Source: Clostridiales bacterium
GTDB taxonomy: Bacteria > Bacillota > Clostridia > Christensenellales > UBA1242
DNA length: 64,000 nucleotides
Assembly: GCA_918262735.1 (NCBI GenBank)
Contig: CAKJYJ010000005.1
Location: 139,538 to 203,537, forward strand
Reading direction: 5' to 3'
Made by a program: the position numbers and the translations under genes. Shown here piece by piece: positions 43,452 to 64,000 of the stretch (the first letter of the stretch is position 1; each line of letters begins with the position of its first letter). The notes beneath the pieces were generated by a model. The model searched no databases. It worked only from the letters and a program-made list of their open reading frames with translations, and had not been told where the DNA came from.

Positions 43452-44447
43452 TTATTCTTCAACTGATTCGTTGTGAAGCCATGAGTAACCATCAAGTCTA
43501 TCGGCACTCAAGCGGAAACTAAAGATTGATGCAATACCCCCTTCACTATTTAAGTAATCTGTTAAAACTTCCAACTGATCAGCATCCATATCTTCTGCTA
43601 TATTTAAATACACATACAAATATCTTGATGCTCCTGGAGCAATTGTAAAGAATGTTGGTTCCGCTGCTACTTCATCGCTCGCCCCCCAATCTTCTAAAAC
43701 ACTTTTGTTGTCAATAACTAAACTATCGGCAGAGTTTTCGGATGTTGCTTCCATAAACATGTACTCAGGATGGGACCAATAAAAATCGTCTTGTGACTCG
43801 CTAACCATCTTTTTTACAGCCTCAGAATCTAAAGATTCATAGAGTTCTCTAATTTCAAATAAACCTTCTTCATCTTCTGTGAAACCCAAATCGTCATCGT
43901 CATACATTGCTTGAATGTCTTGAACATCTTTTTCATTGTTAGTAATATGGTATAATGCATATTCAGGGACCATCTCTCCAACAACAATCATTGCGTCGCC
44001 AGTTTCAGCGTCTGTTTCAATTGAAACACTACTATTTATTAAATTAATTAAATAGTATAGTGGATCTTCTGTGTTGTTTGTTATTTTAAACTCCAAAACT
44101 GCTGTGCTTGCTGTGCTAAGATCTGCAACCGCATCAAAATTTATTTCATCAAGTGGGGTTAAAACATTGCTTATTCCTGTTTCGGCATCTGTTCCAAATT
44201 CATCATAGCCAACTTTCTTTTCCCCATCTTCTGTGGTTGCGTACTCCCAATCATTACCATCTAATGAATATCTAAATGAAAATTCTATATTATATGTTTC
44301 TTCTTGCTCTGCTGGTGAGATTACTTGACCACCATTATCTATTACCGTGTTGTTTGGGTTTGTTTCACCGCAACCAGCAAATGTTACGCCTGTTACAGCA
44401 AGCATAAATGCTAACATTATTCCTAATATTTTTTTCCTTAAATTCAT
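43452..44447 (-). CDS. Acidic lipoprotein of unknown function (331 aa)
   Basis: Signal peptide with lipobox: MNLRKKILGIMLAFMLAVTGVTFAGCG. The mature part is rich in D/E. I recognise no catalytic motif. Confidence 0.75.
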   Translation of the reverse strand: MNLRKKILGIMLAFMLAVTGVTFAGCGETNPNNTVIDNGGQVISPAEQEETYNIEFSFRYSLDGNDWEYATTEDGEKKVGYDEFGTDAETGISNVLTPLDEINFDAVADLSTASTAVLEFKITNNTEDPLYYLINLINSSVSIETDAETGDAMIVVGEMVPEYALYHITNNEKDVQDIQAMYDDDDLGFTEDEEGLFEIRELYESLDSEAVKKMVSESQDDFYWSHPEYMFMEATSENSADSLVIDNKSVLEDWGASDEVAAEPTFFTIAPGASRYLYVYLNIAEDMDADQLEVLTDYLNSEGGIASIFSFRLSADRLDGYSWLHNESVEE

Positions 44448-44579
44448 TTGTTTTTATTCCTCCCTTTTTACATATATTTTTTCACATCTTGGCTTTTAGT
44501 TTACCCTCATTGTAATTAATATCGTATTATACCCGTTTTGTCAAGCAAATTTAGATAGTTGGTAAAAGTTTTATTTCCT

Positions 44580-47500
44580 CTATGTTTTTGGCCTTTTAGG
44601 TGGTGCCGGAGGCTTTGGTCGGGTTGTTGGTTTTAGCGATGTGGAATCTTGCTTTGGTTGCAGTTTATTTTCATTGCTTAAATTCTTAACAAATTCCGCA
44701 ACATCAAATGCTTTTGGAGCTTCTGGCGTTTCAACATTGTCTAGTTCTTTTGCTTTTTCGTCAATTTGCTCCATATAGTCTTCGTTTGTCATTTCATCAT
44801 CTTCCACTGGTTCATCAGATTCTTCATATTCGCCTTCATCTTGCCATTCTTCTTCGCCTTCGCCGTCATATGAATCATCCTCATATTCACCATCGTCCTG
44901 TGGCTCGTCATCATAAACCTCGCCAGACTCTTCGTCAACATATTCATCTTCTGCGGCAACGCCATCAACAGAAACATTGTTTGCATGTTTTTGCAATTTT
45001 TTCTTCTTCTTTCTAGCTATGATGAATATAACCGTTCCAGCAATAATAGCAATTCCAAGAATTACAGAACCAATAATTATTGCAGCCTGAATTGCTGTTG
45101 TGCTTGTTATTATTTTTGCATCTTCGGTGATATAACCAAACACACCATAACAATATGCATTCCAACTTAACACTTCATATTCTTCTGCATGATATGTGCC
45201 ATAAATTCTAAAATGTCCTAGGTTGAACACGCCGCCGAATGGATTTTCTTCGGTTCCTATTGGTACCCAGAATTTATTGGTTAAGTCAATATTTGCAACA
45301 ACTTGGAAATAGTATTGCTTTTCAGATTGATCAAGCTCGCCATTGTTGATTATTTGAGCAAGATATGCGAGTTCTTCGGCCGTTCCAATTAAGAATGGGG
45401 AATCTTCGGTTCCATCACCAGCAAACTCAACTGCATCTGTCAGCCAGAACAATCTTTGTAAATTAAACTCAATTATATTTTCTTCGGTTATGCTAAATCC
45501 TCTCTCTTGGGTGAGATAGATTGATAATAACTCATTTGTTTCTTGTTCAACCCCATTAATTGTTATTGTGCCCATAGCATATCTTGGAGCAATTCTATTG
45601 TTAATTGTTATGTGTTGATTATAGCTATATGTTTGAGCCTGATTTGTTACGTCAACATTATTAACAACAACTACCGTTGAACCCTCATAATTAATAACAA
45701 ATCTAACAATTACATCCTTTGCATTTACAACTGAGTTAATTCTAATGTAGCCAAGTTCACCATCGGCTTGGGTTACATAGTATTCATAGTATGTTCCATT
45801 TCCGTCTGTTTTTAACTCTGTTAATGTTTTGCTTGTTTCGTTTGAAACGGTTATTGCTTGTAGTTCATATCCATATTCAACATCAGTTTCAACATCAACA
45901 TAAATTTTAATTGTTTGACCAACCGAGGTTGTTTCTCCATCAACATGAGTTGTTACTTTTTGCCCATCGACAAATTGAATTGCTACTGTTTTACCAACAA
46001 ACACTGCTGTGTATATGGTTGCATCATAAACATTTGTTGTGAATGTTGATGGATATAATTCAGGATCTAATTCAACTCCATTCATTAACCAATGAGAGAA
46101 CTCAAATCCTTCTCCCGCAGTTGCAACCAATGTTACTTCATCTCCAGTCATACATATTACGTCTGTTTGATTATTTACTGAAGCATTGTTGATACCTTCA
46201 AGTATTTCTTCAACAGCAACAGATACCCTGAACCCATAATGAAGTTTAAGAACCATGTCTTGTGGTAACATTGAGAATGAAATAGCACTTGTTCTTAAAT
46301 CGGTTTCATTATCCAAAGTCCAACCAACAAATATATACCCGTCAAAATCTGGAGTATTCTGCATTTTAACAACTAAGTTTTGAGCAACATTAAAGTAATC
46401 AACAATACCAGTATTTTCAATGTAAACAGCTTCAAACCCAAATGCCGGTTCAAAATAAATACCAATATCAAAATCAACACTGTCTTCAAGGTTGGTTGGG
46501 AGAAGCTCTATGGTTAACTTATAGTCTGGGTTATACCATGTTCCGTATAGGTTAATTACAACAAATCCATTTTCAACCGTTGTATCAGAAATGGTTCCTC
46601 CAGTAAATCCATATACCGCAACACCGTCAACCATTTGATATATTCTACCCTCTTCATCAAATAGATATGATTTATTAATCAAACCAAAATCTCTTGATAT
46701 ACTCCATCCACTAAATCCTCGAATTAAACCATTATAGGTGAATTCTGGACTTGTTACTTCTTGTGGCAAAGTAACCTCATTTTCGTCAACATCTGTGAAT
46801 GTTGATCTGTCATGTCTTATGTAGTATGTGTATTGAGCGTCATCTATGCCCTCATCATGATTTGTATTAAATATTACTTTATATTTTGTTGTTTCATAGT
46901 TTAGTTGCATCTCTGTTGGACGTTCAACATTGCTTAGTGTGTAGTTATCGTTAGAAATATCAAACACTGAACCCTGTTCTGAAGACTGACCAACATAGGT
47001 GTAACCCCTGTTAACATCAATATGTAATGTTACCGTTCCGCCATACCTTACATTTATATCTGCAAACACTTCATTACCTGTTCTAATAACGCTATCGTCT
47101 GAAACACCAACGCTTGAATCATTGTTGATGTATGGAGAAATTGCGTTTACCTCATTGGTAGAAACTGTAACGTTATATCTCTTTAATACCAAATTGATGT
47201 AATATGGATTTGCCAATGAATAATCGTCTGGAGACAAGTTGGTTAACGTGAATTGTAAATCACTTGTTCTTCTGCCATTTACCAATGCTTCATAGTAGAA
47301 TTCTGGGGCAAGTTCAATTGTGAATGTATCGTCAACTCTATATGAAATTTTAATTGACACCGTGTATGTTCCATCACCTGCAGTAATTTTTTCTAACTCT
47401 GTGATTGTAACATGGTCTGGGCCGTCAACAATGCTTGCAAAATTAATCAAATCTGCATTGCTTACAACTTCATATAGATTTGTTCCAACAACAAGCACCT

Positions 47501-50500
47501 TAACAGAAACTTCAAGACCTCTTGTAACTGCAACATATGTTGTGTTACCTGTGATTAATTGAGCTGGAATTGTGCTTTCGGTTGTGATTGGTTCTTGTGA
47601 TAAGGTTCCATCTTGGTTTTCAATATACCAACCAACAATTTCATATTTGTTTGCATCAGACAAAACAATTGATGTCGCAAGAGAATTTCTTTCAAATCTA
47701 ACTTTTGTTGATATTGAATCGTGTTTTGCTCCATTGCCTTGTTTTACGCTCGCGTACTTAGAATTTTGCACCTTAAACACAACGTCATATGTGCTTCTTT
47801 CAAAGATAATAAATATTTCGCAATCATCTTCTAAATCAAATGCTAAATTATTATTTGAATCAACAGAACCAATTTCAACATATTCACCATTAACATATAG
47901 TTTGTATGCTGATAGTTCGTATCCTGTTTTTTCAAATAATGTCTGAATACTAATTCGGGTTAAGTATTCTGCAACATATGTTCCGCCAAATGCAACAGTT
48001 GCTTCATCAACAAGAGCATTGCCATCTCCAATTTTTGCAACAGTTGCAATATTTCCAACAACGCTTACTGGTGATATTGTTCCAAGAACTTCATTTGCTT
48101 CAGCATATTTAATTGTTGCTGTGTAGTTCTCTTTGATATATGGAAGTGTGAACTCTCCATTTGTTGTGAATCCAGATAGAACAACCGTGAATTTACCATT
48201 GTTCTCCGTTACCGCAAATACTCCGTCTAATGCAGTGGTTTCAAAAGCTTCTTCGTTTAATGTGTAACCATGGTTTGGAATAACAACAATCGTTAAATCC
48301 GTGCCAGTTTTCTTGGTTATGCTATTTGATTCTGCTAAAACGTCAAAACCGTCATATTGATATATACCATAAGTTGTATTATTTCTAATTGTTATTGTTA
48401 AGTCCTTTGCCTCATATTCTGCGAATATAGTTGCATTAGACGTGAATTCCTTAAATGTATATTCATTGTCGGTGTTGGCAACTTTAACAATTGAGCCAGT
48501 GCCCATAACTTTTATTGATTTTAATTCATACCCTCTGTTAACAACAACGGTAACAGTGCATGTTTCATCGGTTAATAGCGTGAACGCATTATCGTTTGTT
48601 CCAGATCTGTATGTGCTTGTGACATTGTTATCTGTTATTTGAACCTGAACATAACCAGCAGCATCTACATTTGAAATTAATTCAATTGTATTGGCGTTTG
48701 CTTTACTTTCCGCCGTTAATTCAAGAACGCTATTGTTCTCGCCAGAGAAACCATTGAAGTAATATACATTCTCAGTTCTTGTGCCTTGACCTTGTGCCAT
48801 TGTGTACTTAAAGAATGTGTACCCTGCATTTGGAGTTGATGTTACAATAACTTTATAAGATGTTAAAACATTAAATGCGTATACGCCTGTCTCGTTGCTC
48901 TGATTTTGTAATCTTAATGCCGTACCATTTGCATCTTTAACGTCAATTGTAATATCTGTATGAATTGTATTGATTTGTAATGTATACTCAAAGTCGCTAT
49001 ATTTTGCAAATATCTCTAAGTTATCAGCAGTTGTCCATGTTTCTGGTTTTTCATAATCAGAACCGTTTTCAAATGTGTAACCAAGGAATGTATAGTAGTT
49101 CTTTTGTGCATTAATTAATCTTGGCACTTCACCATCATAACTGATTTGAATTTTTATGCTTTCGTGTCTTTCATTAACATATGCCCAACCATTTTCAATA
49201 TTCACTTCATTAAGTGTGTATTGACCACTCATAGAATTAAGGGTTAACCAATATTTATTTGCTTCCCACTCGGCAACAAGAGATGTGTCGTTTTGAACTT
49301 CATAATTTGCAATGTAGTTTACCGTTTTGCTCTCATTGTTCAATTTCCAAGTTGTAAGACTATATCCTAATCTTGTAACAGCCAATAGATTTTCAACATT
49401 TAGAGCACTTCCAACAACATCTTGTAATTTTTGTCCGTACATCAATGATATTGTGCCAACATTGTTGTTGTATGTAACCAATTGATTTGGTTTGCTGAAC
49501 ACACCTTGGTTGGCATTAATTGTAACCGTGTATTCATCTAATGCATAAACAACATAAATACTTACATCATCCACCAATGTGTGTGCTGTGGTTGTGAATA
49601 AATTAACTATATTATTTACGCCATAACCAATGAAGTGATGATTTGCAAATACTGTTTGATTTGGATAATTTAATATAACACCACTATCCACACCATTATA
49701 CCTTATGTCATTCAGCGCCGAGTCAAATGATATTTCTGTTCTATATTGTTTTGTGTCGGCACTATTTCCAACCTTAACACCTAAAGTGTCATAACCATTT
49801 GTTGCCAAAGAATAAACGGCTAAATATACATTAACCTTAAAGCTGTTAATTGACCAAACTGCATACAAATTAACAGATGCTGAATAGTTTGTTATGTATG
49901 TGCTAATTCTTGCATTTGGATCTATTATATTTCCACCTTGTGTTAGACTCCAACCAACAAATGAATATCCTTTATCTTTATAGGATGGTTGTGGAAGCGA
50001 ATTAACGTTGTGTTCATTAACACTCTTATAATAATCGTAGTCAGCGCTGGTTATTCTTCTTGAACCTTCAAGTATGTCGCTAATTCCAACAGGACATCCA
50101 GTGTATGAATAATTATAGTTGAATGTTATTGTTTTTTGTAAAATATCGCCAAGAACATCACCTGCTGAGTAGTTGTTTGAATCTGCACCAGAAAGAGTGA
50201 ATGAAACGACCTTATTAATTCCAATATATTCGTTGTCGTATGATGCACTGGCAACGGATACAACATCTGGACTAATTACCCCATCAATTGTAATGGTGTA
50301 TTGAGACAGGTCAACGCTATTATTTTCACTTTGTACCCTTGATATTCTTGGTGTAACCGATACCGCAACACCCTTTTTGCCAACAATAACTCTTGATGTT
50401 ATTGTGTTCTTTATTATAACGTTTCCGCCATTACCATTTTCATCTTTTGGAGATGCAACGATTTGGTAATTGCCAACCTTTGTTTTTCCTGCACTTGAAA

Positions 50501-53500
50501 GGTTTGTAACCGTATCTGAACCACTTGCAGAAACTGTAACTTCAGCTTTTAGTTGATTTAATGTTAAGTCTTTTGTTATTAAGTCATCATAGTATTCAAC
50601 ACTATAAGCTAAATCAATTGCGTTTTGTATTGAATCACCATAAATAACATTAACATCACCAACTGTAACATTAACCTCCAATTTGTTGATTGTTCCAAAT
50701 GTTACTTTCATTTGTGGGTTAAAGTTTCTAGATGCACAGGTAACAAGTATTGTTCTGTTGCCTGCTATTGCCTTGTCATATGTAACATTAACAATAACTT
50801 GTCCAAGATTTGCAATGTCGGTTGAATCTAACTCTCCTTCTGCAGGAACACTATTAAAGTTGTATGACAAACCATGCTTAAATTCATTTGTACCGTCATA
50901 AACTTTATCGTATCCGTTATTAAGTGTGGTTGAAGAGACTTGTAATGTTCTTGGAGCAATTGTTAATTTAACATTTGCACCGCTTTGTATGTTAAAGTTT
51001 GTAAAGTAATCACTAACAATACTGCACTCGCTAGCACTAATTGGATATTCTCCAACATTTCCCGTGTTAAACACTATTCTACTTGAAGCAGAATTAATTA
51101 TGTTGTTATTTAATGTTTCTTCTTTTAGAAGCGTTGTGAATGTGAATTGAGAAAGTGTAAACCTTCCAATATTTTTTAATCCGTAGTATCTTGTGCTATC
51201 GGTTATGTTTATGAATGATTGCAGTGAAATAACAACAACATTTGAAACATTTTTAACGATTGTAAACTTATTGTTCAACATCTCTGACGTTGTTCTGAAA
51301 TCAATATTTCCATTTAAGCTTGTTGCTGATGTATAGTTATAACTACCTAAATCCTCACCAGCCTCTCTAACATATTGAACCTTAAATGAGTAGTTGCTTC
51401 CACCAATAGTGGTTGCAAAATTTTGAACAAGTTCTGGATCTTTTGTTGCATATTCTTTGCTGAAGCTATTTATTTGTCCCGCTGTGGCATTATAAACATA
51501 TGGAATAATCTCAAACACATAATCAGAAGCTCCAACCATTGAATAATTTGTTGAACCAAAGTACACTGCACTAGCAATATATTTGCCAGCATTAACTGGT
51601 GCCCCTGATATTTTTGCTCCGTTTGCATATTGTTTATAATCTATTCTTACAGCACCCATTATTTGTTGTTTTTCGGTGCCATCTAGCCCACTGATGTCAA
51701 ATGTAACAATTTTTTGTGATGCACTAAATGTTGTTATGTCATCAGCGAATTCATCGAATACAATACTAAATTCTTTTGCATTTATTGTTACATTCGCCAT
51801 AACAGAAATCTCGTAACACCCGGTTACGACATCTGTGCCGTTATGTTTTATTTCAAATTCAGATAAACCAAGAGTTGTGTTTGTATCGCTAACAGCAAAT
51901 GTCTTAACATTGTTGTCTCTGAATGATAGCTTAACTGTATTTTGTGTTATTGAATCATTTGTTGCAAGCGTTAAAACACTTCCGGTATATGTTTTAGTAT
52001 ATTGATTATTTGCATCATATGTAAACGATATATTACCAAAACCTAAAATCAATGATTTAGGAGTTATTTTACCTGTTGTGTTTTGAGGGGCAATATAGTT
52101 CCCTGCGCTTGTTCCGGAAAGAATAAATGTTATTGTTTGGTTAACATCAACTGCTTTATAGTCCTCATATGTGGCTGTTAAAACAACATCATCATTCTGA
52201 ACAAGTTGAGCACTTGGAAGTGATGTATTACCAGAATATTTAACTTCGTTTGTTCCATCATAAACCTTGTCTTTATCGTAACTAACACTAGTGATTTGAA
52301 CTTTGTTTATTTTAACATTAACGTTGTATTCTGCACTATCAACAATAACAGTAATTACATAATCTCCAGCATTAATAAGTTGAACGCCAGCAACATTCTT
52401 AATGCTTCCATATGTCGTGTTGTTTTTTGTTATAACACCACTTGCACCGCCCTCATAAGTAAAGTTAATTACCAATTCATCAATATGGTCTTGGGCGTTG
52501 TAGGTAAATGGGGTTATTTCTTCAAATACTAATTCCTCGTGAACAAGTTTAATTCCACCTTGTTGGTTCGTTATGTTATAGTTTTTAACAATAACAGGAC
52601 AAGTCATGGCGATTTTGTTATTTTCAATTAAATACTCTGTGTCAACCCTATATTCATTATTGTTAATAATACTACTAATAAGATTATAAGTACCTAATTC
52701 AATTGATGCCCTGTCATCTGGAAGAAGACCAGTAAACATTTCATACTTTAATCCATAGCCTGTTGAAAGGTATGTGCTCTTGTATATCTTATATAACTCT
52801 TCGTGAACACCCAAATTCACCGTGATGTCTTGTTTTATGATTGTTATAGAAATTGGTGAAAGTATTGTGTATGCATAGTTTCCAGATGAAGATGTTATAC
52901 CATTAACTGTATATGTGTCGGCATCTTTAACTTCAACCGCGCCTCCAACAAATGATATGGTCATATCTTGACTAACACCAGCAGTATATCCACCAACAAC
53001 ACCAGGTGTTGCTATGATTGCATTTTTAATGTCTTGTAATCTATCTTTTGCATTATATGTTAAGTTGCCAGCAGTCCATGTTAAATTAACAGGAGCCGTG
53101 TTGACCGTCAATTTTGCACCAACATCAAATGTAATTACATAATTAGACGTTACATCAAATCCACCACTTGTTATAACAAGATTATTTTCACCATTGGCAA
53201 CAAGATAATCTCCAACGTCGCCAACCGTAACCTTAACATTACCAGATAAAACATGTCCTGTAACAAGATCTCCACTTGAATATATGAATCTGCTATCTGA
53301 AGTTTTTAATTCAATTACAACATTGCCAGAATAATTCATTGTGTTGTTTGTAATGCCGGTAATTGTTAGGGTTCTTTGAGAAATTGAACCTTGTCTGCTT
53401 GCCGTTGTCAAAATATAGTTACCCAAATTATTTGAATCAACAATTTCTAACGCAATGGTATATCCTGTGCCATAAGTTTTAACTGGAGTATTCCCGTTAT

Positions 53501-56500: not shown

Positions 56501-59500
56501 CACTGTTAACACTAACGTCTTTTGCACCAGTAAATGCCTCGTCATTTTTTGTTAGTGTGTAATATGTGGTAATTAACTCATCAAACACATAAACATCAAT
56601 GTTTTGAGTTGTTGAATTATAAACCTTGCTTGTAACAAGCCTAATATCTGTTTCGGCAAATGATTTTTTTGTGATGATTATTGTTCCATCAATAATTAAT
56701 TCTAGGTTTGTTAATTCAACTGCAAGTTTTCCAACCCTAGCATCTAATGAAACAATTTCCAATTTTTGTGGACCATAGGTTCCTGCATCAGCTTCCTGTG
56801 TTTCAATTATAATATTGCTAAGGGTTACCGCCTCGTCGCTAACGCTTTCAATTGTTACCCTTGCTTTTTGACCAGTATATTCTTGAGAAGTTTCAGCAAA
56901 ACTTATTGTCATTTGTCGTTTAACAATAGTACCGCTAACATCATTGCCCTCTTTTGAAATTGGGAAGTTATAACTTGCTGAAATAACATCTAGCCCCGTT
57001 ATGCTTACAATTGTTGCCCCAACTTCTGTTGAACTATATTTAACAAGCACTGATGTTCCAATAAGTTCGCTATATGGCGTGTCGGTATTTTTTAGAATGT
57101 ATACCATTTCATTGGTTCCATCATATACCTTATTCATTGTTCCGCCAATTAAAACCGCATCTTTTGCTATTGAAATTCTGTAAGTTGTTGTTGAGTTCGT
57201 TACATCGCAAATAATGCTTGATAAAGATACCCCTGCACTAATTTGATATTCAATAACATCTGTGAGTGCAAAGTTAAATTTATAGAACCCTGAGTCAGAG
57301 TAGTTTTTAACGGTAAGTGTTGAAACCCCCGAAACTTCATTTGTGTCAGGGTCAGTGACTCGTGCGTTTACTGTTGTTCCATTAAGGCTTGTGATATATG
57401 TGCCATTTTCTGCCAAACAATACAACCATTCATAGTTATAGGTTAGGCTTGGATTGGTTGCGTAATTAACGGTTGCAATAAGGTTATATGATGCGTTTTC
57501 ATCATATATTTCTTCAACATCTTCACCCGTTGTTTCAACGGTTGCTGTGTAGCTCCAAACAGCATAGAATGTTATGTCTCTTTTAATGTTCCATACCGAA
57601 CCATTGGTAAATAGTGTTGCTGTGTCACCACTATCGTAATAATACCAACCAACGAATTCAAGACCAGTTCTTTCTGGAACCGGAGCCGTGAATGCAACTG
57701 CTTGTGTTGCAATTTGGGATGCGTCATATGTGTCATGCGTTTCACCGTCAACGTATCCATATTCAAAACTAACTTCACTCTTATTTGTTAATAATAGTTC
57801 AAGAGTATACTCAAAAGTTGCATCTGGTACAACTGTTATTACATAAGAGTAAACATTTCCACTTGTGCCAGATAGTTCAAAGGTTGTTTCTGCACCACTT
57901 GTGCAGGTTGCAGATTTTAACCAGAAATTAGCGTTTATGTAATTTACATCAACATCAAACACAAGTTTTCCTGCGTTAACGATGGTGTTGATGAGCAGGT
58001 TATAATCGTCAATAGAAACAATTTTGTCCTCTGAATCTATTGTCGCAACTTCTTCAATGTCGCCATCATTAGTTTTAACGGTTACTCTAATTGAACGAAC
58101 ATCACCTTCTGGTTCTGGAAGAACAATAGAAGATTCATCAAAATCGAATGCAAAATTGTTCTGTTCGTTCTCGTTTTGTGTTAATGCTATATCTTCCAGT
58201 TTGTAAACTCTGCTTTCTAAAGCTCCAATATAAACATCTATGTCAGCCGCCAAGCTGTTTTTATTATAGGTTTTGTAACCATTAACATCGTTTAGTTTAA
58301 TGCTAAATGCAACAGTTCTTTGCCCACCAGTAATCATTTTTAGTCTGGTTTTGATAAATGTTGCCACATCGGATTGATTGTCAAAACTGTATGTTAAACC
58401 ATAGTAATCTTGTGTTATTACAAGTTCTCCATTTGAGAAGTATCCATCAAGCAATGTTATGTTTCTTGTTGGATTAATAAGGACGTTTCCTGTTAGTTTT
58501 AACTTAATAATATATGGCGTTATTGCTCCCTTTACTGAAGGTTCTGGAACGGTGTAACAACTCTTTAATTCATCAGAGCCTGTAATGTTATAAACCAAAT
58601 CAATACTGTTTGAAACATTAATTCCACCATAGGTTGCAACCACCTTGTAGGCATCTTTATCAACGTCTAAAATGTTATCTGAAATAGACTGTTTTACTTT
58701 GTTTGTACCATCATACATCTTTGTTACAGTGTCATCAAACTCCAACCCAATTGGAATAATGTTTATATCTGACACGTTTGCCACGTTTCCGCCAGCAATT
58801 TGAGAAACTTGCGTGTGCGCTAAAGTGTTTAACAAGTAGTATTCACTGCTTACATCATCTTCATCTGATTCTTGATAAACATAATCAAAAACAACGTAGA
58901 AGCTACCAGAATCTAAAGAATATTTTAATGATGTTGCGTAAACGTTAACAACATTATTAACTGTGTCAACCTTAAACTCTAAATCACCATCAAACTCTTC
59001 AAATTCGTCAGCACTATTTGCTTTGTAATATACTGTTATATTATCTGTGTATGACGCATTGCCGTTTACATCAATACCATTTATATCTTGAATCCAAGAG
59101 AACGTTGCAATAAGACCATCATAACCAATATAGTCGCCATCATAGGTCACTGAAACACTGCTTTTTGTTATGGTAACATCATCAATATTCCAGTATGCAT
59201 AAAATTTAATTGGGCTTGAATTTGCATCATCAACATCAGTGATGAATGTGCTTGTTTCTCTATCAACAACATAATTACCGTTTGAACTCTTTAGATAAAT
59301 TATGTATTTAGGGTTACCAGAGTCATCTTTTATTTCAGAACCCCAGTAGGCAAATGTATATCCCGTTCTGGTTGGAATAATATTGTTTACTTGATAATTG
59401 TTTCTATTAAACGTTACGTAATAATCGGTTGGGTTATTTTGAAGGCTTGTTTTTTGAGCATTTGTAAGATACGTTCCATCAAGGTCTAGTAATATTTTGG

Positions 59501-62500
59501 CTGGAACGGTTATCGCTTCAATCTCGTATTCCTCAGATTCATTATAACCACCAAATGATTCTGGGGTCCAGTCATTATATGCGTATTCATCATGTACAAA
59601 ATCATATTCACAAAGCACAACGCTTGGATCATCTTTTTTAACCCACTTGTAAATAATTTTTCCGGTTTCGGCATATTGATTGCTGATGTAACCAAGAGTT
59701 TTGTTATTTCCATACTTTTTGCCGCTTATTTTATTGTAGGTTGACCAATCAATAACCCCATCTCTCTCTGGATAAACACCATTTAATTCTCCGTAACCGT
59801 ATTTAACAACTGTTGATGCAACTGTGGCATTATCAATAATGAATAATAGGGTTACATCATTACCTTCAAAGTTAGGAACAAGGGTTTCGCTATATGAAAC
59901 GCTTGATCCATCATCACTATGACCAAATGTTTCTGGCAATAAAATATCATTTACTTTTGAAGTTTTTTGAATTGGTGGTACATCTCGATATACTATATGG
60001 CCACCGCCACTCCCCTCAACTCCTTGAAAAACATAAAGTTTAGATAGTGTGTAACCTTCTGTTTGAGCAAAAGCATATTCACCAATAACGTCCCATATTG
60101 TTATATTTTCAAAATCTTCGCCATATCTGATGTACATATCTAACGTTTCATCATCGGCATGTACATTTATTGGGTCTTTGGTGAATGTTAATGAGTATAC
60201 AATTGGATTATAATAACTTTCAACATAAAGTTTTGGAACGGCAGCTCCGGAGCCGGCATTAAACGTTATGTTAATATAATTAATCACACAATCCACACCC
60301 GAGCCAAAATTGTCGTATGGCATTGCAGAAACTGCACCAAGGTTTTCTGAACTTGCTCCGTTTTTATCAATAAAGTACATCTCGCTAAAACGATAACCTA
60401 TAATTTCTTCTGCACTTATTCCTGTTGAATCGTAATACGTGTCTGTTTTATCACCATAATTAATATTGGCAGTTTCCTCCGTCCCAGGAACATAATATTT
60501 ATTAACGAGTTGATATGTTAGTTCCAAAGGAATAAATGTTATTTGCGCGTTGACTGTTTCTTCTGGACAAGCAATAATTACATCATCGCCATCCATAGCT
60601 CCAACAAGACCACCATCAATAAGGTCGGTTAGCCCAACACCACTGGTTGAAGCCCCAGCAATACTAACATCGTCGGGGTTATATAGATAAATATAGTCAT
60701 TTGAACCTATGCCGTATGTGAGTTTTTTAGGAACAATTGTAAATGTATTATTATTTGCTCCAGTTTTAACCTTAAACTCAACATAACCACCCTTTAGGCT
60801 ATTAGTTTTAACTGTTGGTGTTTGTATTTTAGATACTGAAGTGAATGTGAAGTATTGTTTTTGGTCTGCCGAATCTCCACTTTGCGTGTGATAATTAACA
60901 CCAATTGAGTAAACATATGGAATGTACTCCGTGTAAACATAAATATCATAGCCTTCGCTTTTGTATGCAAGATTTGTTAGACTAATGGTAATGATAGAAC
61001 CATCAATAACCTTATTCCCGCTATTGGTTTTTGAATATTGTACTGTAACAGATATCGCCCCTCCATCACCACTAGTTTGATAAATGTTTCGAGCAATATT
61101 GGTTTCTTCAAGTGATGAAGAAATATTCAAACCATCAACTGGGTTTGTGTTGTTTTCATCGAATAAATAAACCCGTTGACCATTAGAGAATATCTCAATT
61201 CCTGTTATTTTTTTATATGGTAAAACACCTTTGTGAACGCTTATTGTTCTTGTGAAACTTTCTTCCTCACAAAAATATTCTTCATCAACCTTGCCTTGGT
61301 AAATGTTTGTTGTGACCGTGCTGTCGTATATTTTGTTTTCAGATGTATTATCAAATATTTTTATATCGGTTTCTTTCTGTTCAAGTTGAATAATTATTTC
61401 GTACTCTGTTTCACTGTTAATAATGCCACTTATTGTACTAAAGCTAAAATAACTGGCGTCGCCAATTAATTTAAGTGGTCCAAAATTTTCACCTGCACTA
61501 AAGCCATGTATTTCAAAATGCTTGCCAAGATAATCATTTAAAGAAACGTCGCAATAAAAACGTACATCATTTATGTAGTTGTATGTCACATAATCTGGAA
61601 CCACATTAGATGTTTCGCCTTCAAACACAAGCGGATATACCCTTGCTGCACTTATTTGTTGATATTCATTCCCCTTGCCTCTATAACACTTCGCTGTGAT
61701 TACAAAACTATCAATAACATCTTCATTTGATGGTTGTGGAGTAAGTTCATTAAATTTACCATTTTTATCAACAATTCCATAACTTGTTTTAAATTTGAAC
61801 TTAATTGCTTGGTCTTGTAGTCCAATTTCAAGTTGAAGGGTCTGCAACGCTCTAAACGTGAACGCCCTGCCATAGTTTGTGCCAACAACGCTTAAATAAC
61901 CAGAACCATTAACACCGCCAACAACCGTAAGCGCATAAATATTGGTTGTGTTAATTGTTCTATCTCTCGATTCTTCCACATTTAACACATATGCCGTGTT
62001 ATCTGGATTACCACTATCAAAAATTGTTACTTGATATGTTGCTGGAATATTAATGCTGGTTGAGTCGGTATAACAATCAGCACTAACCTTATCAATCACA
62101 TAAGTTCCTGAGCCTTGGTTTGTGACATAAGGATTGGTAAATAATACCTCTAATGAGAGCACATCTTCCACACTGTTACTAATAAAAATTGCGTTCGTCA
62201 TCAAAATCCAGTTTGCATAAAAAGTGTCACCATCATTGGCGTTTGCTAGTATTGCTGGGTATTTATCATCTGTAGCCTCACCTATTTTGAGATTTGTTGT
62301 ATAACTAACAGCATTTCCGCTTGTGTTAAGGTAAGACTTATCAATACAAAGATAAGGAAGATCTTCATCACCAGCTGCTTTACATGCACCCTTAAATGAG
62401 AGATTTAACCCATCGCCGTCATTATTATAGCAACTACTAGCATATATGCTTTCGAATAAATGCGTGTCCCCCATGCTGTTTATGCTACTAGCAGTTAAAC

Positions 62501-64000
62501 ATACAGCACTTAGATAATTTTTAGCATCACTTGCTGGTGCCATTGCAGTTTTGAAGAAAATTTTAGCATCTCCCTTAGTGCTTGAAGAATAGGACGTTAC
62601 AATATAACCGCTTTGAGTTGAGCTCCCAACACCCAACATTCCAGCACCATATGTAACCGACGCATTGTTAATTGTAACCTTGTTGATATTTCGTAGGTAA
62701 ATGTAAATATTCATTGTCAGTTCGCCAGAAGCATTCTGAGTAACAACAAAGTATTTTGTATCTTCTTCTTGTGTATCGGGTACAACTAATACGGGTACAA
62801 TCTTATTTTTTGTGTCAGCAGAACTCCATTGTTTATTACTTGTTGTGGCATTAGTTACAAACATTTTTGAGGCACGGTCAGGTTTTGCTAGCACTATTTT
62901 GCTACCAAGTGTGGCGTAATAATTCTCTGAAATTCCCGTTATTTCAACTGCAAGCATAGGATTATCTGTCAAAACATATTTTCCATTAATATTCTCATAT
63001 GCACCGCCAATGTCACTTATACTTGTTTGGTTTGTCAACTTTTGACCATTAAAAGCGTAAGCGAATTTATTAACTTGAACCTTTCTTTCTGCAACGGTAA
63101 CTTCAATTTTTATTGCTGTTTGATTGGCATATTTTGCGGTTATTGAACCACTACTATTATCAACCGAACAACTAAAACCACTTTGACCATTAGTTAAGAT
63201 AAGTTTAAAATCATTTCTTTTTGAACATGCTGAAGAGGTTGTTGCAGCAAAATCAGACTCGCATGCAACCCAACTCATTGTTGAATTATTATATATGTAT
63301 TGCTTTACCGTTAGTGATGTTATTGTGTATTTATTAACACCGTTCTCTGTCTTATTGTATGCTAAACTTGCGTTTTTCCAATTGGTGTTGTCTGAAGTCG
63401 TCTGTCCTAATATTTTCCAATTATCACTACTTGTGATTTTTTTTGCTGTGTCGTATTTAACCTGGTAAGTTACCTTATTATTTTCATCCGTAAATGCTAT
63501 TTCGTTATTCCCATCTTTATAGGTGACCCCTTCAGGGAAGGTTGCCTCAACTTCAACATAAACATTGTTTGTTCCAATATATGAACCATCTTTTTTTTGT
63601 GTATCACCACCTTTCAGAGTACCATCGCTTTCGCAGTGAACGGTGGTAATACCACTTGGGGATTTATAAATTGGACCGCCAATGCTTGCACAGTTTGTTA
63701 TTGTTGTGGATGATAAACTACTATAAACAATATTTGCATCAGTTCCAACACAGTCTTTAACAATTAAATTGTCAATCAATGCCCCGTGTGTGCATGCAAA
63801 AAGAGCCTTTGAACTATAACTTTGGCTGGAGTCAAATGTAACACCTTTTATTATGTGCCCATTGCCGTAAAATTTTCCCTTAAAAGCAGTAGTTCCGCTT
63901 CCAATTGGAATCCATAGTTTTGAAGAAAGGTCAATATCGGCAGTAACATTAAATGTGATCCCAGAAAAGCCTGAATTGGAATCACAGTTAACCGCTATCC
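44580..64000 (-). CDS. Giant cell-surface protein (at least 6472 aa within the window; N-terminus beyond the right edge) with Flg_new-type repeats, YDG(T)/MBG-like repeats, InlB-B-repeat-like modules, a C-terminal TM anchor and an acidic cytoplasmic tail
   Basis: Single stop-free frame from 63998 down to the TAG at 44580-44582. The track start at 63779 is a TTG, and I translated the 73 codons above it with no stop. Motifs include GYTFAYWGSE, GLEFVGWYYYD, GYSFVGWSLTQGG and GYIFVGWTLDN, plus many KVYDGT signatures. Confidence 0.9.
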   Translation of the reverse strand, partial: IAVNCDSNSGFSGITFNVTADIDLSSKLWIPIGSGTTAFKGKFYGNGHIIKGVTFDSSQSYSSKALFACTHGALIDNLIVKDCVGTDANIVYSSLSSTTITNCASIGGPIYKSPSGITTVHCESDGTLKGGDTQKKDGSYIGTNNVYVEVEATFPEGVTYKDGNNEIAFTDENNKVTYQVKYDTAKKITSSDNWKILGQTTSDNTNWKNASLAYNKTENGVNKYTITSLTVKQYIYNNSTMSWVACESDFAATTSSACSKRNDFKLILTNGQSGFSCSVDNSSGSITAKYANQTAIKIEVTVAERKVQVNKFAYAFNGQKLTNQTSISDIGGAYENINGKYVLTDNPMLAVEITGISENYYATLGSKIVLAKPDRASKMFVTNATTSNKQWSSADTKNKIVPVLVVPDTQEEDTKYFVVTQNASGELTMNIYIYLRNINKVTINNASVTYGAGMLGVGSSTQSGYIVTSYSSSTKGDAKIFFKTAMAPASDAKNYLSAVCLTASSINSMGDTHLFESIYASSCYNNDGDGLNLSFKGACKAAGDEDLPYLCIDKSYLNTSGNAVSYTTNLKIGEATDDKYPAILANANDGDTFYANWILMTNAIFISNSVEDVLSLEVLFTNPYVTNQGSGTYVIDKVSADCYTDSTSINIPATYQVTIFDSGNPDNTAYVLNVEESRDRTINTTNIYALTVVGGVNGSGYLSVVGTNYGRAFTFRALQTLQLEIGLQDQAIKFKFKTSYGIVDKNGKFNELTPQPSNEDVIDSFVITAKCYRGKGNEYQQISAARVYPLVFEGETSNVVPDYVTYNYINDVRFYCDVSLNDYLGKHFEIHGFSAGENFGPLKLIGDASYFSFSTISGIINSETEYEIIIQLEQKETDIKIFDNTSENKIYDSTVTTNIYQGKVDEEYFCEEESFTRTISVHKGVLPYKKITGIEIFSNGQRVYLFDENNTNPVDGLNISSSLEETNIARNIYQTSGDGGAISVTVQYSKTNSGNKVIDGSIITISLTNLAYKSEGYDIYVYTEYIPYVYSIGVNYHTQSGDSADQKQYFTFTSVSKIQTPTVKTNSLKGGYVEFKVKTGANNNTFTIVPKKLTYGIGSNDYIYLYNPDDVSIAGASTSGVGLTDLIDGGLVGAMDGDDVIIACPEETVNAQITFIPLELTYQLVNKYYVPGTEETANINYGDKTDTYYDSTGISAEEIIGYRFSEMYFIDKNGASSENLGAVSAMPYDNFGSGVDCVINYINITFNAGSGAAVPKLYVESYYNPIVYSLTFTKDPINVHADDETLDMYIRYGEDFENITIWDVIGEYAFAQTEGYTLSKLYVFQGVEGSGGGHIVYRDVPPIQKTSKVNDILLPETFGHSDDGSSVSYSETLVPNFEGNDVTLLFIIDNATVASTVVKYGYGELNGVYPERDGVIDWSTYNKISGKKYGNNKTLGYISNQYAETGKIIYKWVKKDDPSVVLCEYDFVHDEYAYNDWTPESFGGYNESEEYEIEAITVPAKILLDLDGTYLTNAQKTSLQNNPTDYYVTFNRNNYQVNNIIPTRTGYTFAYWGSEIKDDSGNPKYIIYLKSSNGNYVVDRETSTFITDVDDANSSPIKFYAYWNIDDVTITKSSVSVTYDGDYIGYDGLIATFSWIQDINGIDVNGNASYTDNITVYYKANSADEFEEFDGDLEFKVDTVNNVVNVYATSLKYSLDSGSFYVVFDYVYQESDEDDVSSEYYLLNTLAHTQVSQIAGGNVANVSDINIIPIGLEFDDTVTKMYDGTNKVKQSISDNILDVDKDAYKVVATYGGINVSNSIDLVYNITGSDELKSCYTVPEPSVKGAITPYIIKLKLTGNVLINPTRNITLLDGYFSNGELVITQDYYGLTYSFDNQSDVATFIKTRLKMITGGQRTVAFSIKLNDVNGYKTYNKNSLAADIDVYIGALESRVYKLEDIALTQNENEQNNFAFDFDESSIVLPEPEGDVRSIRVTVKTNDGDIEEVATIDSEDKIVSIDDYNLLINTIVNAGKLVFDVDVNYINANFWLKSATCTSGAETTFELSGTSGNVYSYVITVVPDATFEYTLELLLTNKSEVSFEYGYVDGETHDTYDASQIATQAVAFTAPVPERTGLEFVGWYYYDSGDTATLFTNGSVWNIKRDITFYAVWSYTATVETTGEDVEEIYDENASYNLIATVNYATNPSLTYNYEWLYCLAENGTYITSLNGTTVNARVTDPDTNEVSGVSTLTVKNYSDSGFYKFNFALTDVIEYQISAGVSLSSIICDVTNSTTTYRISIAKDAVLIGGTMNKVYDGTNEMVYILKNTDTPYSELIGTSVLVKYSSTEVGATIVSITGLDVISASYNFPISKEGNDVSGTIVKRQMTISFAETSQEYTGQKARVTIESVSDEAVTLSNIIIETQEADAGTYGPQKLEIVSLDARVGKLAVELTNLELIIDGTIIITKKSFAETDIRLVTSKVYNSTTQNIDVYVFDELITTYYTLTKNDEAFTGAKDVSVNSGITFELNYPNYNTYTLTGVSFEITPFNAYVDIIATPLTKVYDGTVNYFGVSGVPFTFTSGSRIYTDSSKSQEVTGAFATEIKNSLDIKFEDKNAGNNIGLSIETSSDNFVITQNPELSGSITKKQTAISLKETYTKIYDGKSIEFAYSLLQANGAVNGETITSGEGLTLPLTFAINAGTYNLANAVGYTYDLVMSDDNSISTNYEITGLIGTITISRADVDFVPTTEYTYTAQVITPVWTATRDHDNENITDLFEITATENPVNVGTYSCTVSIKAEHSGNYNFTSSTFTVTVVAKEVTIVVNASKFFDGKKLRVNIEDNSILCFGDTFYNSYVESAGEYRWEYVLNSNDLQIGHVNKSITVKNKDGEIATTNYSFRYNVRLVINEAELTSSNVLVIGKYTYNGSVQTLRIKVLGNEFQIVDGTYEYAFNEATLDARIYRTVGESTLSPASFKYANIYTVKIRLKGSDGSNCSNEYSFNVEMEKIVITQVSLTKNKVYDGTYAVDGTVTSSDIVPDDTNNIKLSGAYTSKDVGESIAIIITFNNYRGDLSATNYELLVGSYVLDANLNIIGKISKRTVTFTYNNSSLYYTGAQLTLNVADFSNIANALDVEPFGGSVTFKNVVNAGTYSLVSEEIRNDLTVASSLNNYTLVFAGSVTIKKAEVYVSVVSDNVYTYDAESHDVVLTATASNGAINPDEARMILGQTYKTTTSGANVTPINYGQYYIYPKVNDAYVSNYKYIGNEYLTDKLTINQRTATLDIQVSLLYNSNNTTGYEYPFSASDLTNIVRGHILGGKISISPANYIETTYEYKTGGTMNNEIEIQNFSLTDADTNNVIGNYNIEYNIEIVISSTSGANVIIENLTYNATERINGVSIVAEYMNSGTIQTETITLNNQGTNVTIVGFYANNEDARDNTNALTSIKNAGEYYARVEFDASLNLPQSIYYTRFNVLPKTITLNTLTANGVPFTGSKVYDDSEEIVLDSSDIYASDKTSVQVLGTYYNGNTPVKTYGTGYTIALEIVDSNNLGNYILTTASRQGSISQRTLTITGITNNTMNYSGNVVIELKTSDSRFIYSSGDLVTGHVLSGNVKVTVGDVGDYLVANGENNLVITSGGFDVTSNYVITFDVGAKLTVNTAPVNLTWTAGNLTYNAKDRLQDIKNAIIATPGVVGGYTAGVSQDMTISFVGGAVEVKDADTYTVNGITSSSGNYAYTILSPISITIIKQDITVNLGVHEELYKIYKSTYLSTGYGLKYEMFTGLLPDDRASIELGTYNLISSIINNNEYRVDTEYLIENNKIAMTCPVIVKNYNITNQQGGIKLVHEELVFEEITPFTYNAQDHIDELVINFTYEGGASGVITKNNTTYGSIKNVAGVQLINAGDYVITVIVDSAEYNVNVKINKVQITSVSYDKDKVYDGTNEVKYSGNTSLPSAQLVQNDDVVLTATYEDYKAVDVNQTITFILSGTSAGNYIAPQNTTGKITPKSLILGFGNISFTYDANNQYTKTYTGSVLTLATNDSITQNTVKLSFRDNNVKTFAVSDTNTTLGLSEFEIKHNGTDVVTGCYEISVMANVTINAKEFSIVFDEFADDITTFSASQKIVTFDISGLDGTEKQQIMGAVRIDYKQYANGAKISGAPVNAGKYIASAVYFGSTNYSMVGASDYVFEIIPYVYNATAGQINSFSKEYATKDPELVQNFATTIGGSNYSFKVQYVREAGEDLGSYNYTSATSLNGNIDFRTTSEMLNNKFTIVKNVSNVVVISLQSFINITDSTRYYGLKNIGRFTLSQFTFTTLLKEETLNNNIINSASSRIVFNTGNVGEYPISASECSIVSDYFTNFNIQSGANVKLTIAPRTLQVSSTTLNNGYDKVYDGTNEFKHGLSYNFNSVPAEGELDSTDIANLGQVIVNVTYDKAIAGNRTILVTCASRNFNPQMKVTFGTINKLEVNVTVGDVNVIYGDSIQNAIDLAYSVEYYDDLITKDLTLNQLKAEVTVSASGSDTVTNLSSAGKTKVGNYQIVASPKDENGNGGNVIIKNTITSRVIVGKKGVAVSVTPRISRVQSENNSVDLSQYTITIDGVISPDVVSVASASYDNEYIGINKVVSFTLSGADSNNYSAGDVLGDILQKTITFNYNYSYTGCPVGISDILEGSRRITSADYDYYKSVNEHNVNSLPQPSYKDKGYSFVGWSLTQGGNIIDPNARISTYITNYSASVNLYAVWSINSFKVNVYLAVYSLATNGYDTLGVKVGNSADTKQYRTEISFDSALNDIRYNGVDSGVILNYPNQTVFANHHFIGYGVNNIVNLFTTTAHTLVDDVSIYVVYALDEYTVTINANQGVFSKPNQLVTYNNNVGTISLMYGQKLQDVVGSALNVENLLAVTRLGYSLTTWKLNNESKTVNYIANYEVQNDTSLVAEWEANKYWLTLNSMSGQYTLNEVNIENGWAYVNERHESIKIQISYDGEVPRLINAQKNYYTFLGYTFENGSDYEKPETWTTADNLEIFAKYSDFEYTLQINTIHTDITIDVKDANGTALRLQNQSNETGVYAFNVLTSYKVIVTSTPNAGYTFFKYTMAQGQGTRTENVYYFNGFSGENNSVLELTAESKANANTIELISNVDAAGYVQVQITDNNVTSTYRSGTNDNAFTLLTDETCTVTVVVNRGYELKSIKVMGTGSIVKVANTDNEYTFKEFTSNATIFAEYEAKDLTITIRNNTTYGIYQYDGFDVLAESNSITKKTGTDLTIVVIPNHGYTLNEEAFETTALDGVFAVTENNGKFTVVLSGFTTNGEFTLPYIKENYTATIKYAEANEVLGTISPVSVVGNIATVAKIGDGNALVDEATVAFGGTYVAEYLTRISIQTLFEKTGYELSAYKLYVNGEYVEIGSVDSNNNLAFDLEDDCEIFIIFERSTYDVVFKVQNSKYASVKQGNGAKHDSISTKVRFERNSLATSIVLSDANKYEIVGWYIENQDGTLSQEPITTESTIPAQLITGNTTYVAVTRGLEVSVKVLVVGTNLYEVVSNADLINFASIVDGPDHVTITELEKITAGDGTYTVSIKISYRVDDTFTIELAPEFYYEALVNGRRTSDLQFTLTNLSPDDYSLANPYYINLVLKRYNVTVSTNEVNAISPYINNDSSVGVSDDSVIRTGNEVFADINVRYGGTVTLHIDVNRGYTYVGQSSEQGSVFDISNDNYTLSNVERPTEMQLNYETTKYKVIFNTNHDEGIDDAQYTYYIRHDRSTFTDVDENEVTLPQEVTSPEFTYNGLIRGFSGWSISRDFGLINKSYLFDEEGRIYQMVDGVAVYGFTGGTISDTTVENGFVVINLYGTWYNPDYKLTIELLPTNLEDSVDFDIGIYFEPAFGFEAVYIENTGIVDYFNVAQNLVVKMQNTPDFDGYIFVGWTLDNETDLRTSAISFSMLPQDMVLKLHYGFRVSVAVEEILEGINNASVNNQTDVICMTGDEVTLVATAGEGFEFSHWLMNGVELDPELYPSTFTTNVYDATIYTAVFVGKTVAIQFVDGQKVTTHVDGETTSVGQTIKIYVDVETDVEYGYELQAITVSNETSKTLTELKTDGNGTYYEYYVTQADGELGYIRINSVVNAKDVIVRFVINYEGSTVVVVNNVDVTNQAQTYSYNQHITINNRIAPRYAMGTITINGVEQETNELLSIYLTQERGFSITEENIIEFNLQRLFWLTDAVEFAGDGTEDSPFLIGTAEELAYLAQIINNGELDQSEKQYYFQVVANIDLTNKFWVPIGTEENPFGGVFNLGHFRIYGTYHAEEYEVLSWNAYCYGVFGYITEDAKIITSTTAIQAAIIIGSVILGIAIIAGTVIFIIARKKKKKLQKHANNVSVDGVAAEDEYVDEESGEVYDDEPQDDGEYEDDSYDGEGEEEWQDEGEYEESDEPVEDDEMTNEDYMEQIDEKAKELDNVETPEAPKAFDVAEFVKNLSNENKLQPKQDSTSLKPTTRPKPPAPPKRPKT
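44583..45014 (-). other. Predicted cytoplasmic tail of the giant protein (144 aa: basic stop-transfer, poly-acidic block, Pro/Lys-rich end)
   Basis: RKKKKKLQKH..., then AEDEYVDEESGEVYDDEPQDDGEYEDDSYDGEGEEEWQDEGEYEESDEPVEDDE, ending ...KPTTRPKPPAPPKRPKT. Confidence 0.7.
45015..45095 (-). other. Single C-terminal transmembrane helix of the giant protein
   Basis: AIQAAIIIGSVILGIAIIAGTVIFIIA (27 hydrophobic residues) followed immediately by RKKKKK. Confidence 0.8.
50890..58722 (-). repeat. Protein-level array of divergent YDG(T)-signature (MBG-like) domains inside the giant CDS
   Basis: KVYDGT or close variants are encoded at about 50890, 52250, 53580, 55000, 56085, 56375, 57115 and 58702. Degenerate [FL]TY[DN][AG] variants are interspersed. 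The copies are not identical at the DNA level. Confidence 0.6.

Follow-up and report, generated by a model that had tools for sequence, protein, structure and literature searches.

The fibrillar adhesins of Bacillota, the class described by Monzon and Bateman (PMC8286594, PMC9210967), are very long secreted proteins, biased in composition towards threonine, serine and asparagine, which extend from a surface anchor as a stalk of many small domains and leave, distal to that anchor, an N-terminal region without annotation. YDG is a published stalk domain of this class (PMC9210967), and it belongs to the families that were first defined, together with MBG_2, in the study of Periscope Proteins (10.1101/2020.12.24.424174); transmembrane (TM) regions are found in about 20% of the fibrillar-adhesin-like proteins that lack known anchors (PMC8286594). 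We compare here with these proteins the product of a gene that runs to the end of a stretch of 64,000 nucleotides (nt) from contig CAKJYJ010000005.1 of a Clostridiales bacterium, a stretch which is called the window throughout. At full length this product, the giant protein, has 6,581 amino acids (aa) and a mass of 724 kDa.

The kind of protein is already known, that of the giant fibrillar surface proteins of Bacillota, and the giant protein is a very divergent example of it. Judging from its sequence, we think it probable that one real gene of 6,581 codons specifies here a Sec-exported, C-terminally anchored fibre resembling the fibrillar adhesins. It appears to match the published definition of that class in all but an adhesive domain, being very long, secreted and anchored at the surface, with a T/S/N-rich bias, a stalk of many small domains that includes YDG, and an unannotated N-terminal region at the far end. 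It differs in that no known adhesive domain is present, in that a TM helix with a 144-aa tail replaces the LPXTG/sortase system or any other catalogued anchor, and in that its modules have diverged so far that Pfam leaves about 85% of the protein unmatched.

Three further groups can be compared with it. Giant1-5 of Apilactobacillus kunkeei, extracellular proteins of 3,000-8,000 aa (PMC12863079), are alike in size range, in coming from Bacillota, in their elongation, in an N-terminal domain of beta-solenoid type and in a fast-evolving, lineage-restricted sequence; no sequence relationship was found, however, and a single gene beside the S10 operon contrasts with a cluster of five genes, a short head with a large solenoid. 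Periscope proteins (SasG, Rib, CdrA; 10.1101/2020.12.24.424174) also project an N-terminal region on a stalk of repeated domains, YDG and MBG_2-type families included, but their repeats are near-identical, in tandem and variable in copy number, whereas the giant gene has no DNA repeats and an essentially fixed length. With the M26 IgA1 metalloproteases, or Zmp (Peptidase_M26_N followed by Glug; structures 7UVK and 7UVL), the giant protein shares a head of the form W-x-P-I-G ... F-x-G-x-F-x-G-N-G-H, followed by rungs, yet these rungs are degenerate and only two or three in number, and the M26 catalytic domain, HExxH and LPXTG are all missing.

The giant gene in the window and in public data

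44580..63998, minus strand: window part of the giant open reading frame (ORF), 6,472 sense codons ended by the TAG at 44580-44582

Minus-strand translation meets no stop in the window part of this frame, 6,472 codons from 63998 down to the TAG, and the initial annotation of the window was right to read a frame that is not yet closed at the window edge. The other five frames carry between 309 and 836 stops across the same 19.4 kb, and for the composition of the window, with a stop probability of 0.078 per codon, a run of this length has a chance of about 1e-227, which upholds the earlier view that it could not be accidental. The start listed at 63779 is indeed merely an internal TTG, the first of the window part, at which the listed frame 44580..63779 happens to begin. 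In a codon-usage model trained on housekeeping genes of the window (ribosomal proteins, SecY, RpoA, NrdD, LysRS and others), the gene's own frame scores best in 63 of 63 sliding windows of 600 nt; its relative synonymous codon usage correlates with that of the housekeeping genes (r=0.96), and GC at codon positions 1/2/3 is 0.43/0.37/0.25, against 0.44/0.33/0.26 in the reference genes.

The end that the window cuts off is available in public data. A protein of 6,581 aa (P0003), from a 287-kb NCBI contig, is identical over residues 110-6581 to the entire window ORF, so that 109 residues lie beyond the window edge and the size that had been hidden by an off-window N-terminus is settled. Residue numbers given here are those of the window ORF, to which 109 must be added for the numbering of P0003. 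The 90% cluster of P0003 includes a protein of 6,586 aa (P0005), encoded on an independent ENA metagenome contig (L028, 40.8 kb); compared at the codon level, this ortholog is 97.7% identical in amino acids, has no stop, and differs by indels that are all in frame (1, 4 and 2 codons, besides the extreme end). Within the giant gene Tandem Repeats Finder reports two trivial arrays only, and the longest direct DNA repeat measures 37 nt at 78% identity. Since no DNA repeat exceeds 37 nt and the two independent assemblies agree within 5 codons, the worry about collapsed or expanded repeats, marked for checking in the initial annotation, can be set aside. Because of its codon usage, of the identical public protein, of the independent ortholog and of the lack of repeats to misassemble, we conclude that the 19.4-kb frame is one real gene, complete in public data, and not an assembly artefact.

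Head, stalk and anchor

From N- to C-terminus the modules follow one another in the order first proposed for them:

63594..63998, minus strand: head module 1, aa 1-135 (...DIDLSSKLWIPIGSGTTAFKGKFYGNGH..., then 2-3 degenerate beta-helix-like rungs)
58764..63593, minus strand: distal region, aa 136-1745, about 1,600 residues, with no family, structure or homolog matched
50118..58727, minus strand: stalk tract with nine divergent YDG domains, aa 1758-4627, 8.6 kb
58497-58727, 56901-57137, 56115-56393, 55848-56102 and 54759-55022, minus strand: YDG copies 1-5, from a hidden Markov model (HMM) of internal copies
53358-53597, 52041-52274, 50664-50912 and 50118-50345, minus strand: YDG copies 6-9, from the same kind of model
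57558-57713, minus strand: sub-threshold Flg_new module within the YDG tract, aa 2096-2147
45459..50081, minus strand: membrane-proximal stalk of Flg_new and Flg_new_2 modules (divergent, InlB B-repeat-like), aa 4640-6180, best match at 45996-46154
45099..45446, minus strand: head module 2, aa 6185-6300, whose N-cap (GDGTEDSPFLIGTAEEL...NIDLTNKFWVPIGTEENPFGGVF) is complete, immediately ahead of the TM helix
45018..45092, minus strand: single TM helix, IQAAIIIGSVILGIAIIAGTVIFII, aa 6303-6327
44583..45017, minus strand: predicted cytoplasmic tail of 144 aa (ARKKKKK, a D/E-rich stretch, a Pro/Lys-rich end)

The two extremities are those expected of a protein that crosses the membrane once. The off-window N-terminus of P0003, MKKSIGNILLKVAQTTLVMVAFVMASFFAGQLITAKSSANLAAAE, is a predicted signal peptide, and the signal peptide stretch MKKSIGNILLKVAQTTLVMVAFVMASFFAGQLI... 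is found again at the same place in the L028 ortholog, where the gene starts at an ATG with GAGG, a ribosome-binding site, before it, and where a promoter-like TTTACG-16-TATAAT lies about 38 nt upstream. At the C-terminal end, the TM helix is the sole Kyte-Doolittle peak above 1.5 in the entire protein (2.73), and the RKKKKK directly after it has the positive-inside pattern; the single helix and the 144-aa tail recognized at the outset are thus both there. The tail is acidic (E27 D19 K16 P12), and its last 22 codons or so differ between strains, collinearity with L028 stopping at window position 44646. A type I topology (N-out, C-in), with the tail in the cytoplasm, is suggested by the signal peptide recovered from P0003 together with a C-terminal TM helix that has basic residues on its cytoplasmic side. 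No LPXTG-like motif ([LIVFS]Px[TSA][GNSA]) occurs in the last 380 residues or so; a sortase substrate of the LPXTG, MSCRAMM type was rejected for lack of this motif, and for a tail of 144 aa, unlike the few-residue tail of a sorting signal.

Head 1, the first 15 or so residues of which lie off-window, is 50% identical to head 2 across 28 residues, in agreement with the earlier recognition of a second head-like module. Head 2 matches the head modules of 18 loci (L001-L018), and head 1 aligns with repeated modules of two public proteins (P0001 and P0002) at 36-43% identity; in P0001 the aligned residues, 840-907, lie inside a match to Peptidase_M26_N (PF05342), which a Glug motif follows. A profile of 22 head-family sequences (A2) matches the Gemella IgA1 protease (7UVK/7UVL) with E values of 8e-6 to 2e-5, over residues 1063-1150; a beta-helix domain is included in the N-terminal region of IgA1 protease (PMC9637739). 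Searched directly against PF05342 or PF07581, the giant protein gives no match even at E<=1, and the GGxxG (Glug) rungs of its head are degenerate, so that the link to M26 is transitive, through P0001 and the A2 profile. To judge from these alignments, the head is a homolog of one part of the N-terminal region in the M26 IgA1 proteases, without a catalytic motif. Head 1 also matches phrog_30905 in PHROGs, whereas a direct search gives it no Pfam model at all.

The head module (DIDL...W-x-P-I-G...F-K-G-K-F-Y-G-N-G-H) is widely shuffled among proteins (loci L001-L027; P0001, P0002). Of 27 proteins compared, 13 have it at a distance of 50-130 residues from the N-terminus, and some have 2-4 copies; it occurs near the N-terminus in surface proteins of Clostridia, Bacteroidota (with type IX secretion system sorting tails), Treponema and Acholeplasmataceae, as well as in one phage family, phrog_30905. 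When aa 1-400 were compared with genome and metagenome contigs, the only matches were those of the head module in unrelated proteins, with no close relative.

In the stalk, PF18657 (YDG) is matched with 32.6 bits for a cut-off of 25 (E 1e-7), and 12 of 15 aligned copies, including copies from L001 and L005, match that family, which justifies the label initially given to the tract. The claim of 7.8 kb of YDG domains was overstated all the same: the tract measures 8.6 kb and has only nine recognisable YDG copies, which make up about 27% of its residues, with unassigned beta-rich modules interleaved. The claim of Flg_new and InlB-B-like modules stands for Flg_new_2 (60.4, 37.6 and 35.7 bits, cut-off 23.6) and falls short for Flg_new, which stays below threshold (25.4 against 27); matches lie near aa 4660, 4841 and 5859. 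The modules have diverged to the point where internal ones are at most about 35% identical, where hhalign detects no relation of the inter-YDG modules to YDG or to each other (probabilities below 10%), where HMMs iterated from seven non-YDG seed modules gathered no further members, and where BLOSUM autocorrelation finds no sequence periodicity.

Attempts to reach further by structure or by larger collections gave little. Structure prediction of individual modules, advised in the initial annotation, was carried out and produced nothing usable: the AlphaFold model of a unit made of a YDG domain and two modules, based on an alignment of 12 internal copies, has a predicted local distance difference test score (pLDDT) of 43.8, with 54-73 for the YDG part alone, and the single-sequence model of the N-terminal tip has 30.5, with scattered predicted strands only. 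Foldseek against the PDB returned nothing below E=3; a PDB sequence search with both protein halves returned nothing, and one with the YDG profile nothing significant; the NCBIfam scan gave nothing useful, and PHROGs the head only. A word-indexed search with aa 1745-3558, and with a two-sequence alignment with L001, returned no match, not even the protein itself, and carries little weight, as its 8,000-candidate filter appears to be swamped by long T/N/S-rich queries, the self-match having been lost though P0003 heads a cluster in the collection.

The closest architectural relative is a giant ORF of at least 3,515 aa (L001) in an uncultured Lachnospiraceae metagenome-assembled genome (MAG; CAZRJB010000007.1), which has a signal peptide, a head at residue 117 (55% identity), about 1,500 dissimilar residues and then a collinear YDG-containing tract. 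The stalk tracts are 26% identical over 2,042 columns (E 3e-66; sub-stretches to E 1e-32), and the distal regions are mutually dissimilar; the C-terminus of L001 falls outside the locus examined. Before P0003 was known, the position of the head in L001 had predicted about 105 off-window residues, the true number being 109. In a Clostridia MAG (L005) there is another ORF, at least 4,024 aa long, which has two heads.

The distal region, the proposed fibre and its rivals

Between head 1 and the stalk, the distal region gives no match in Pfam (even at E<=1 on 708-aa pieces), in NCBIfam, among PDB sequences or in PHROGs. An exhaustive HMMER search of aa 111-1310 against 1.84 billion representative proteins, the search on which the standing of this region as an orphan depends, recovers P0003 itself and nothing else; a word-indexed homology search with aa 1-1200 found only two proteins, both matching the head alone. 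No similarity is detectable with the equivalent 1,500 or so residues of the collinear L001 homolog.

It is worth emphasizing how unevenly the gene has changed between strains. Compared with L028, the ratio of nonsynonymous to synonymous substitution rates (dN/dS) for the whole gene is 0.22 (164 nonsynonymous and 204 synonymous changes), but aa 1-1195 account for 96:52 of these and aa 1196-6300 for 55:135, a significant difference (Fisher p=5e-11), with dN/dS about 0.5 in the former and mostly 0.04-0.2 in the latter, and amino-acid changes per residue in aa 1-1195 are about eight times those of the stalk. Head 1 has one amino-acid difference in aa 1-100, head 2 and the last 600 residues of the ectodomain have none, and dN/dS in the membrane-proximal stalk is 0-0.19. 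The protein has 35 cysteines, half of them in the first 1,195 residues, and three of those are non-conserved. On account of its position, of its evolutionary rate and of the general plan of fibrillar adhesins, we propose that the fast-evolving distal region may be a ligand-binding tip.

The mechanism that we envisage would run as follows. The N-terminal signal peptide, which is seen in P0003 and whose cleavage we infer, would direct export, and some 6,300 residues would be threaded outside the cell to form a chain of small, mutually very divergent beta-rich modules, of which YDG and Flg_new_2 are the identified ones, the others being unassigned. Translocation would stop at the single C-terminal TM helix and, by the positive-inside rule, probably leave the acidic, Pro/Lys-rich tail of 144 aa in the cytoplasm. 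At the far end a beta-helix-type head would be followed by 1,100-1,600 or so lineage-specific, fast-evolving residues acting as the ligand-binding tip. SiiE has 5,559 aa and is about 175 nm long; scaling from it, the reach of the fibre might be 0.2-0.3 micrometres. The multi-hundred-nanometre fibre with a type I TM anchor that had been put forward at the start thus keeps its topology, while its length is a matter of scaling. Likewise, the suggestion of a fibrillar adhesin has gained a YDG stalk, a signal peptide and an anchor, whereas no adhesive domain or ligand has been identified.

Several points weigh against a fibrillar adhesin. Adhesive families and ligand-binding domains find no match in Pfam, NCBIfam or PHROGs, and some 85% of the protein could be assigned to no family. 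Both AlphaFold models are low (pLDDT 30.5 and 43.8) and Foldseek is blank, so that a rod-like shape, and an Ig-like fold for most modules, are assumptions. The strain comparison uses two full-length sequences only, and if the tip evolves faster (dN/dS about 0.5), this could come from a relaxation of constraint instead of diversification driven by a ligand. Finally, one of three public assemblies (L029, a 5.8-kb scaffold, ENA ERZ28653989, scaffold_22053) has a frameshifting deletion near its position 2019, where blastn against the window shows the following segment to be missing; L028 retains the 16 nt, and the deletion, if true, would give in that strain a truncated protein without anchor.

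48382..48397, minus strand: 16-nt segment deleted in L029, at about aa 5201-5206

Of the other explanations, the one that survives best, although we consider it unlikely, is that the protein acts as a non-specific surface coat or spacer, forming a dense protective layer against phages, immune factors or other cells, with no ligand-binding tip at all. This would account for the lack of an adhesive domain match anywhere in the protein, for a tip which shares the T/N/S/V/Y-rich composition of the stalk, and for a tip model that amounts to scattered strands of low confidence; moreover, the N-terminal regions of some fibrillar-adhesin-like proteins are simply further stalk domains (PMC9210967). It accounts less well for the distal 1,200 residues, which evolve differently from the rest (96:52 against 55:135) and hold half of all cysteines, or for the conserved head module that caps the N-terminus: such a polarity in rate, cysteines and head is not expected of a uniform spacer.

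By analogy with the M26 IgA1 proteases, whose beta-helix adjoins the catalytic domain, the distal region might instead conceal a divergent protease, glycosidase or lyase domain, the whole protein then being a surface-tethered enzyme. The head family has its homolog in the N-terminal region of M26 IgA1 protease, where in a solved structure a beta-helix gates the active site (PMC9637739), and about 1,600 residues without assignment leave room for such a domain. Yet no HExxH occurs anywhere in the 6,581 residues, Pfam gives no match to Peptidase_M26_C or to any other peptidase, and no catalytic family is matched, even at E<=1, in Pfam, NCBIfam, PDB sequences or PHROGs. For a catalytic core, moreover, a dN/dS of about 0.5 would be unusual, as would cysteines that are not conserved. 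We therefore regard an enzyme as distinctly improbable.

The deletion in L029, by which the giant frame becomes two gene calls, of 687 and 1,213 aa, is what speaks for an artefact or a dying gene, that is, for a chimera made in assembly or for a pseudogene that has ceased to yield a single protein. Frameshifts, stops or misassembly were what the initial annotation had named as fatal to its view: two independent assemblies are intact (6,581 and 6,586 codons), with in-frame indels only and a dN/dS of 0.22, there are no repeats prone to misassembly, and the third assembly is frameshifted by these 16 nt. Both flanks of the deletion are stop-free in the original frame, with nonsynonymous to synonymous counts of 6:20 and 9:29, which makes it an assembly error or a very recent lesion; they still look selectively maintained on both sides. 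We hold this explanation to be very improbable.

A periscope-type protein of variable length, with near-identical repeats tuning its reach, is suggested by the origin of YDG and MBG_2 in the Periscope Proteins study (10.1101/2020.12.24.424174) and is effectively refuted by two trivial tandem arrays, a longest direct repeat of 37 nt at 78% identity, modules at most about 35% identical without sequence periodicity, and strains that differ by indels of 1, 4 and 2 codons only.

Other classes were considered and rejected. An internalin is not compatible with the lack of any leucine-rich repeat (LRR) match in Pfam, the only resemblance being that of the B-repeat-like Flg_new and Flg_new_2 modules; a repeats-in-toxin (RTX) giant adhesin of the type I secretion system (SiiE, LapA type) would not fit the lack of a HemolysinCabind or Big match in Pfam, nor the Sec signal peptide, TM helix and tail. 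The C-terminus, a TM helix and tail without toxin domain, is not that of a polymorphic or contact-dependent toxin, and a phage tail fibre is at odds with a chromosomal context beside the S10 operon and with the lack of a PHROG match beyond the head.

Genomic setting and significance

The giant gene belongs to a bacterial chromosome (the window has 34% GC), and it is followed, on the same strand, by genes for a lipoprotein of 331 aa and a BspA-type LRR protein of 1,283 aa, then by the S10-spc-alpha ribosomal operon with SecY and RpoA. Further downstream come a TraG-like ATPase, LysRS, NrdD/NrdG and a YetF-family protein. To judge from the nearest relative, L001, from YetF and from the NrdD/NrdG pair, which is oxygen-sensitive, the host is probably an anaerobic member of the Bacillota. 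No rRNA, tRNA or Rfam family reaches the gathering score in the 64-kb window.

43452-44447, same strand as the giant gene: lipoprotein gene, 331 aa, acidic, lipobox FAGC, no family
39527-43378, same strand: BspA-type LRR gene, 1,283 aa
38968-39327 (24793-25152 in L028), minus strand: S10 (rpsJ) leader of about 330 nt, from a strong promoter-like TTGACA ... TATTAT to rpsJ
20379-23069, minus strand: TraG/VirD4/HerA-like P-loop ATPase, 896 aa, downstream of the RpoA gene

A strain-variable cassette of 5.3 kb (window 39328-44645), made of the lipoprotein gene, the LRR gene and the last 22 codons of the giant gene, separates the latter from the S10 operon. L028 has 400 nt (24392-24792) in its place, and the S10 operon there comes directly after the giant gene. 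As the left breakpoint lies inside the last 22 or so codons of the giant gene, the Pro/Lys-rich C-terminal end is not the same in the two strains. The gap from the giant gene to the lipoprotein gene showed no terminator; a promoter-like TTGACA-17-TATAAT site was read there by eye and was not reported by the scan. The S10 leader has GC-rich segments and belongs to a block 99.3% identical between strains, and it could be an uncatalogued ribosomal-operon leader. Beyond the RpoA gene, the ATPase is followed by ORFs of 613 and 220 aa, neither with a Pfam match, and this segment (17514-23069, minus strand) may be the remnant of a conjugative or DNA-translocation system. Further ORFs without Pfam match around the giant gene lie at 9244-10428 and 18349-20190 (both minus strand) in the window, and at 74-1039 (plus) and 3238-4347 (minus) in L028; a divergently oriented gene of 369 aa just upstream of the giant gene in L028 is one of them, with a faint PKD-like match only.

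A surface fibre of adhesin type is the best-supported reading of the giant protein from what can be predicted of it, and it is not demonstrated. A bolder version of it, which we consider unlikely, is that the first 1,200 residues or so, perhaps 1,600, make up one or several new ligand-binding folds under diversifying selection, while the long acidic, Pro/Lys-rich tail couples the fibre to a partner inside the cell. Mycoplasma adhesins and eukaryotic adhesion receptors have cytoplasmic tails that make such a connection, and the protein, if this were true, would be a transmembrane link rather than a passive tether.

Its size, its scant annotation, an orphan and fast-evolving tip, and a TM anchor with a long cytoplasmic tail make the giant protein moderately interesting. 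Its 724 kDa place it with the larger proteins of bacteria, and it is almost wholly without annotation: the modules of the stalk have diverged past recognition by HMMs, and the presumed functional end is a singleton among 1.84 billion representatives. We can see from this example how much of the surface-protein sequence of uncultured gut-type anaerobes escapes the family databases. Should the tip turn out to be an adhesive fold of a new type, the catalogue from which attachment to hosts or partners is predicted in metagenomes would be enlarged by it. Set against the periscope proteins, with a fixed length and no DNA-level repeats left, the giant protein illustrates in nature how a multidomain fibre of great length can avoid recombination, and possibly misfolding between neighbouring domains.

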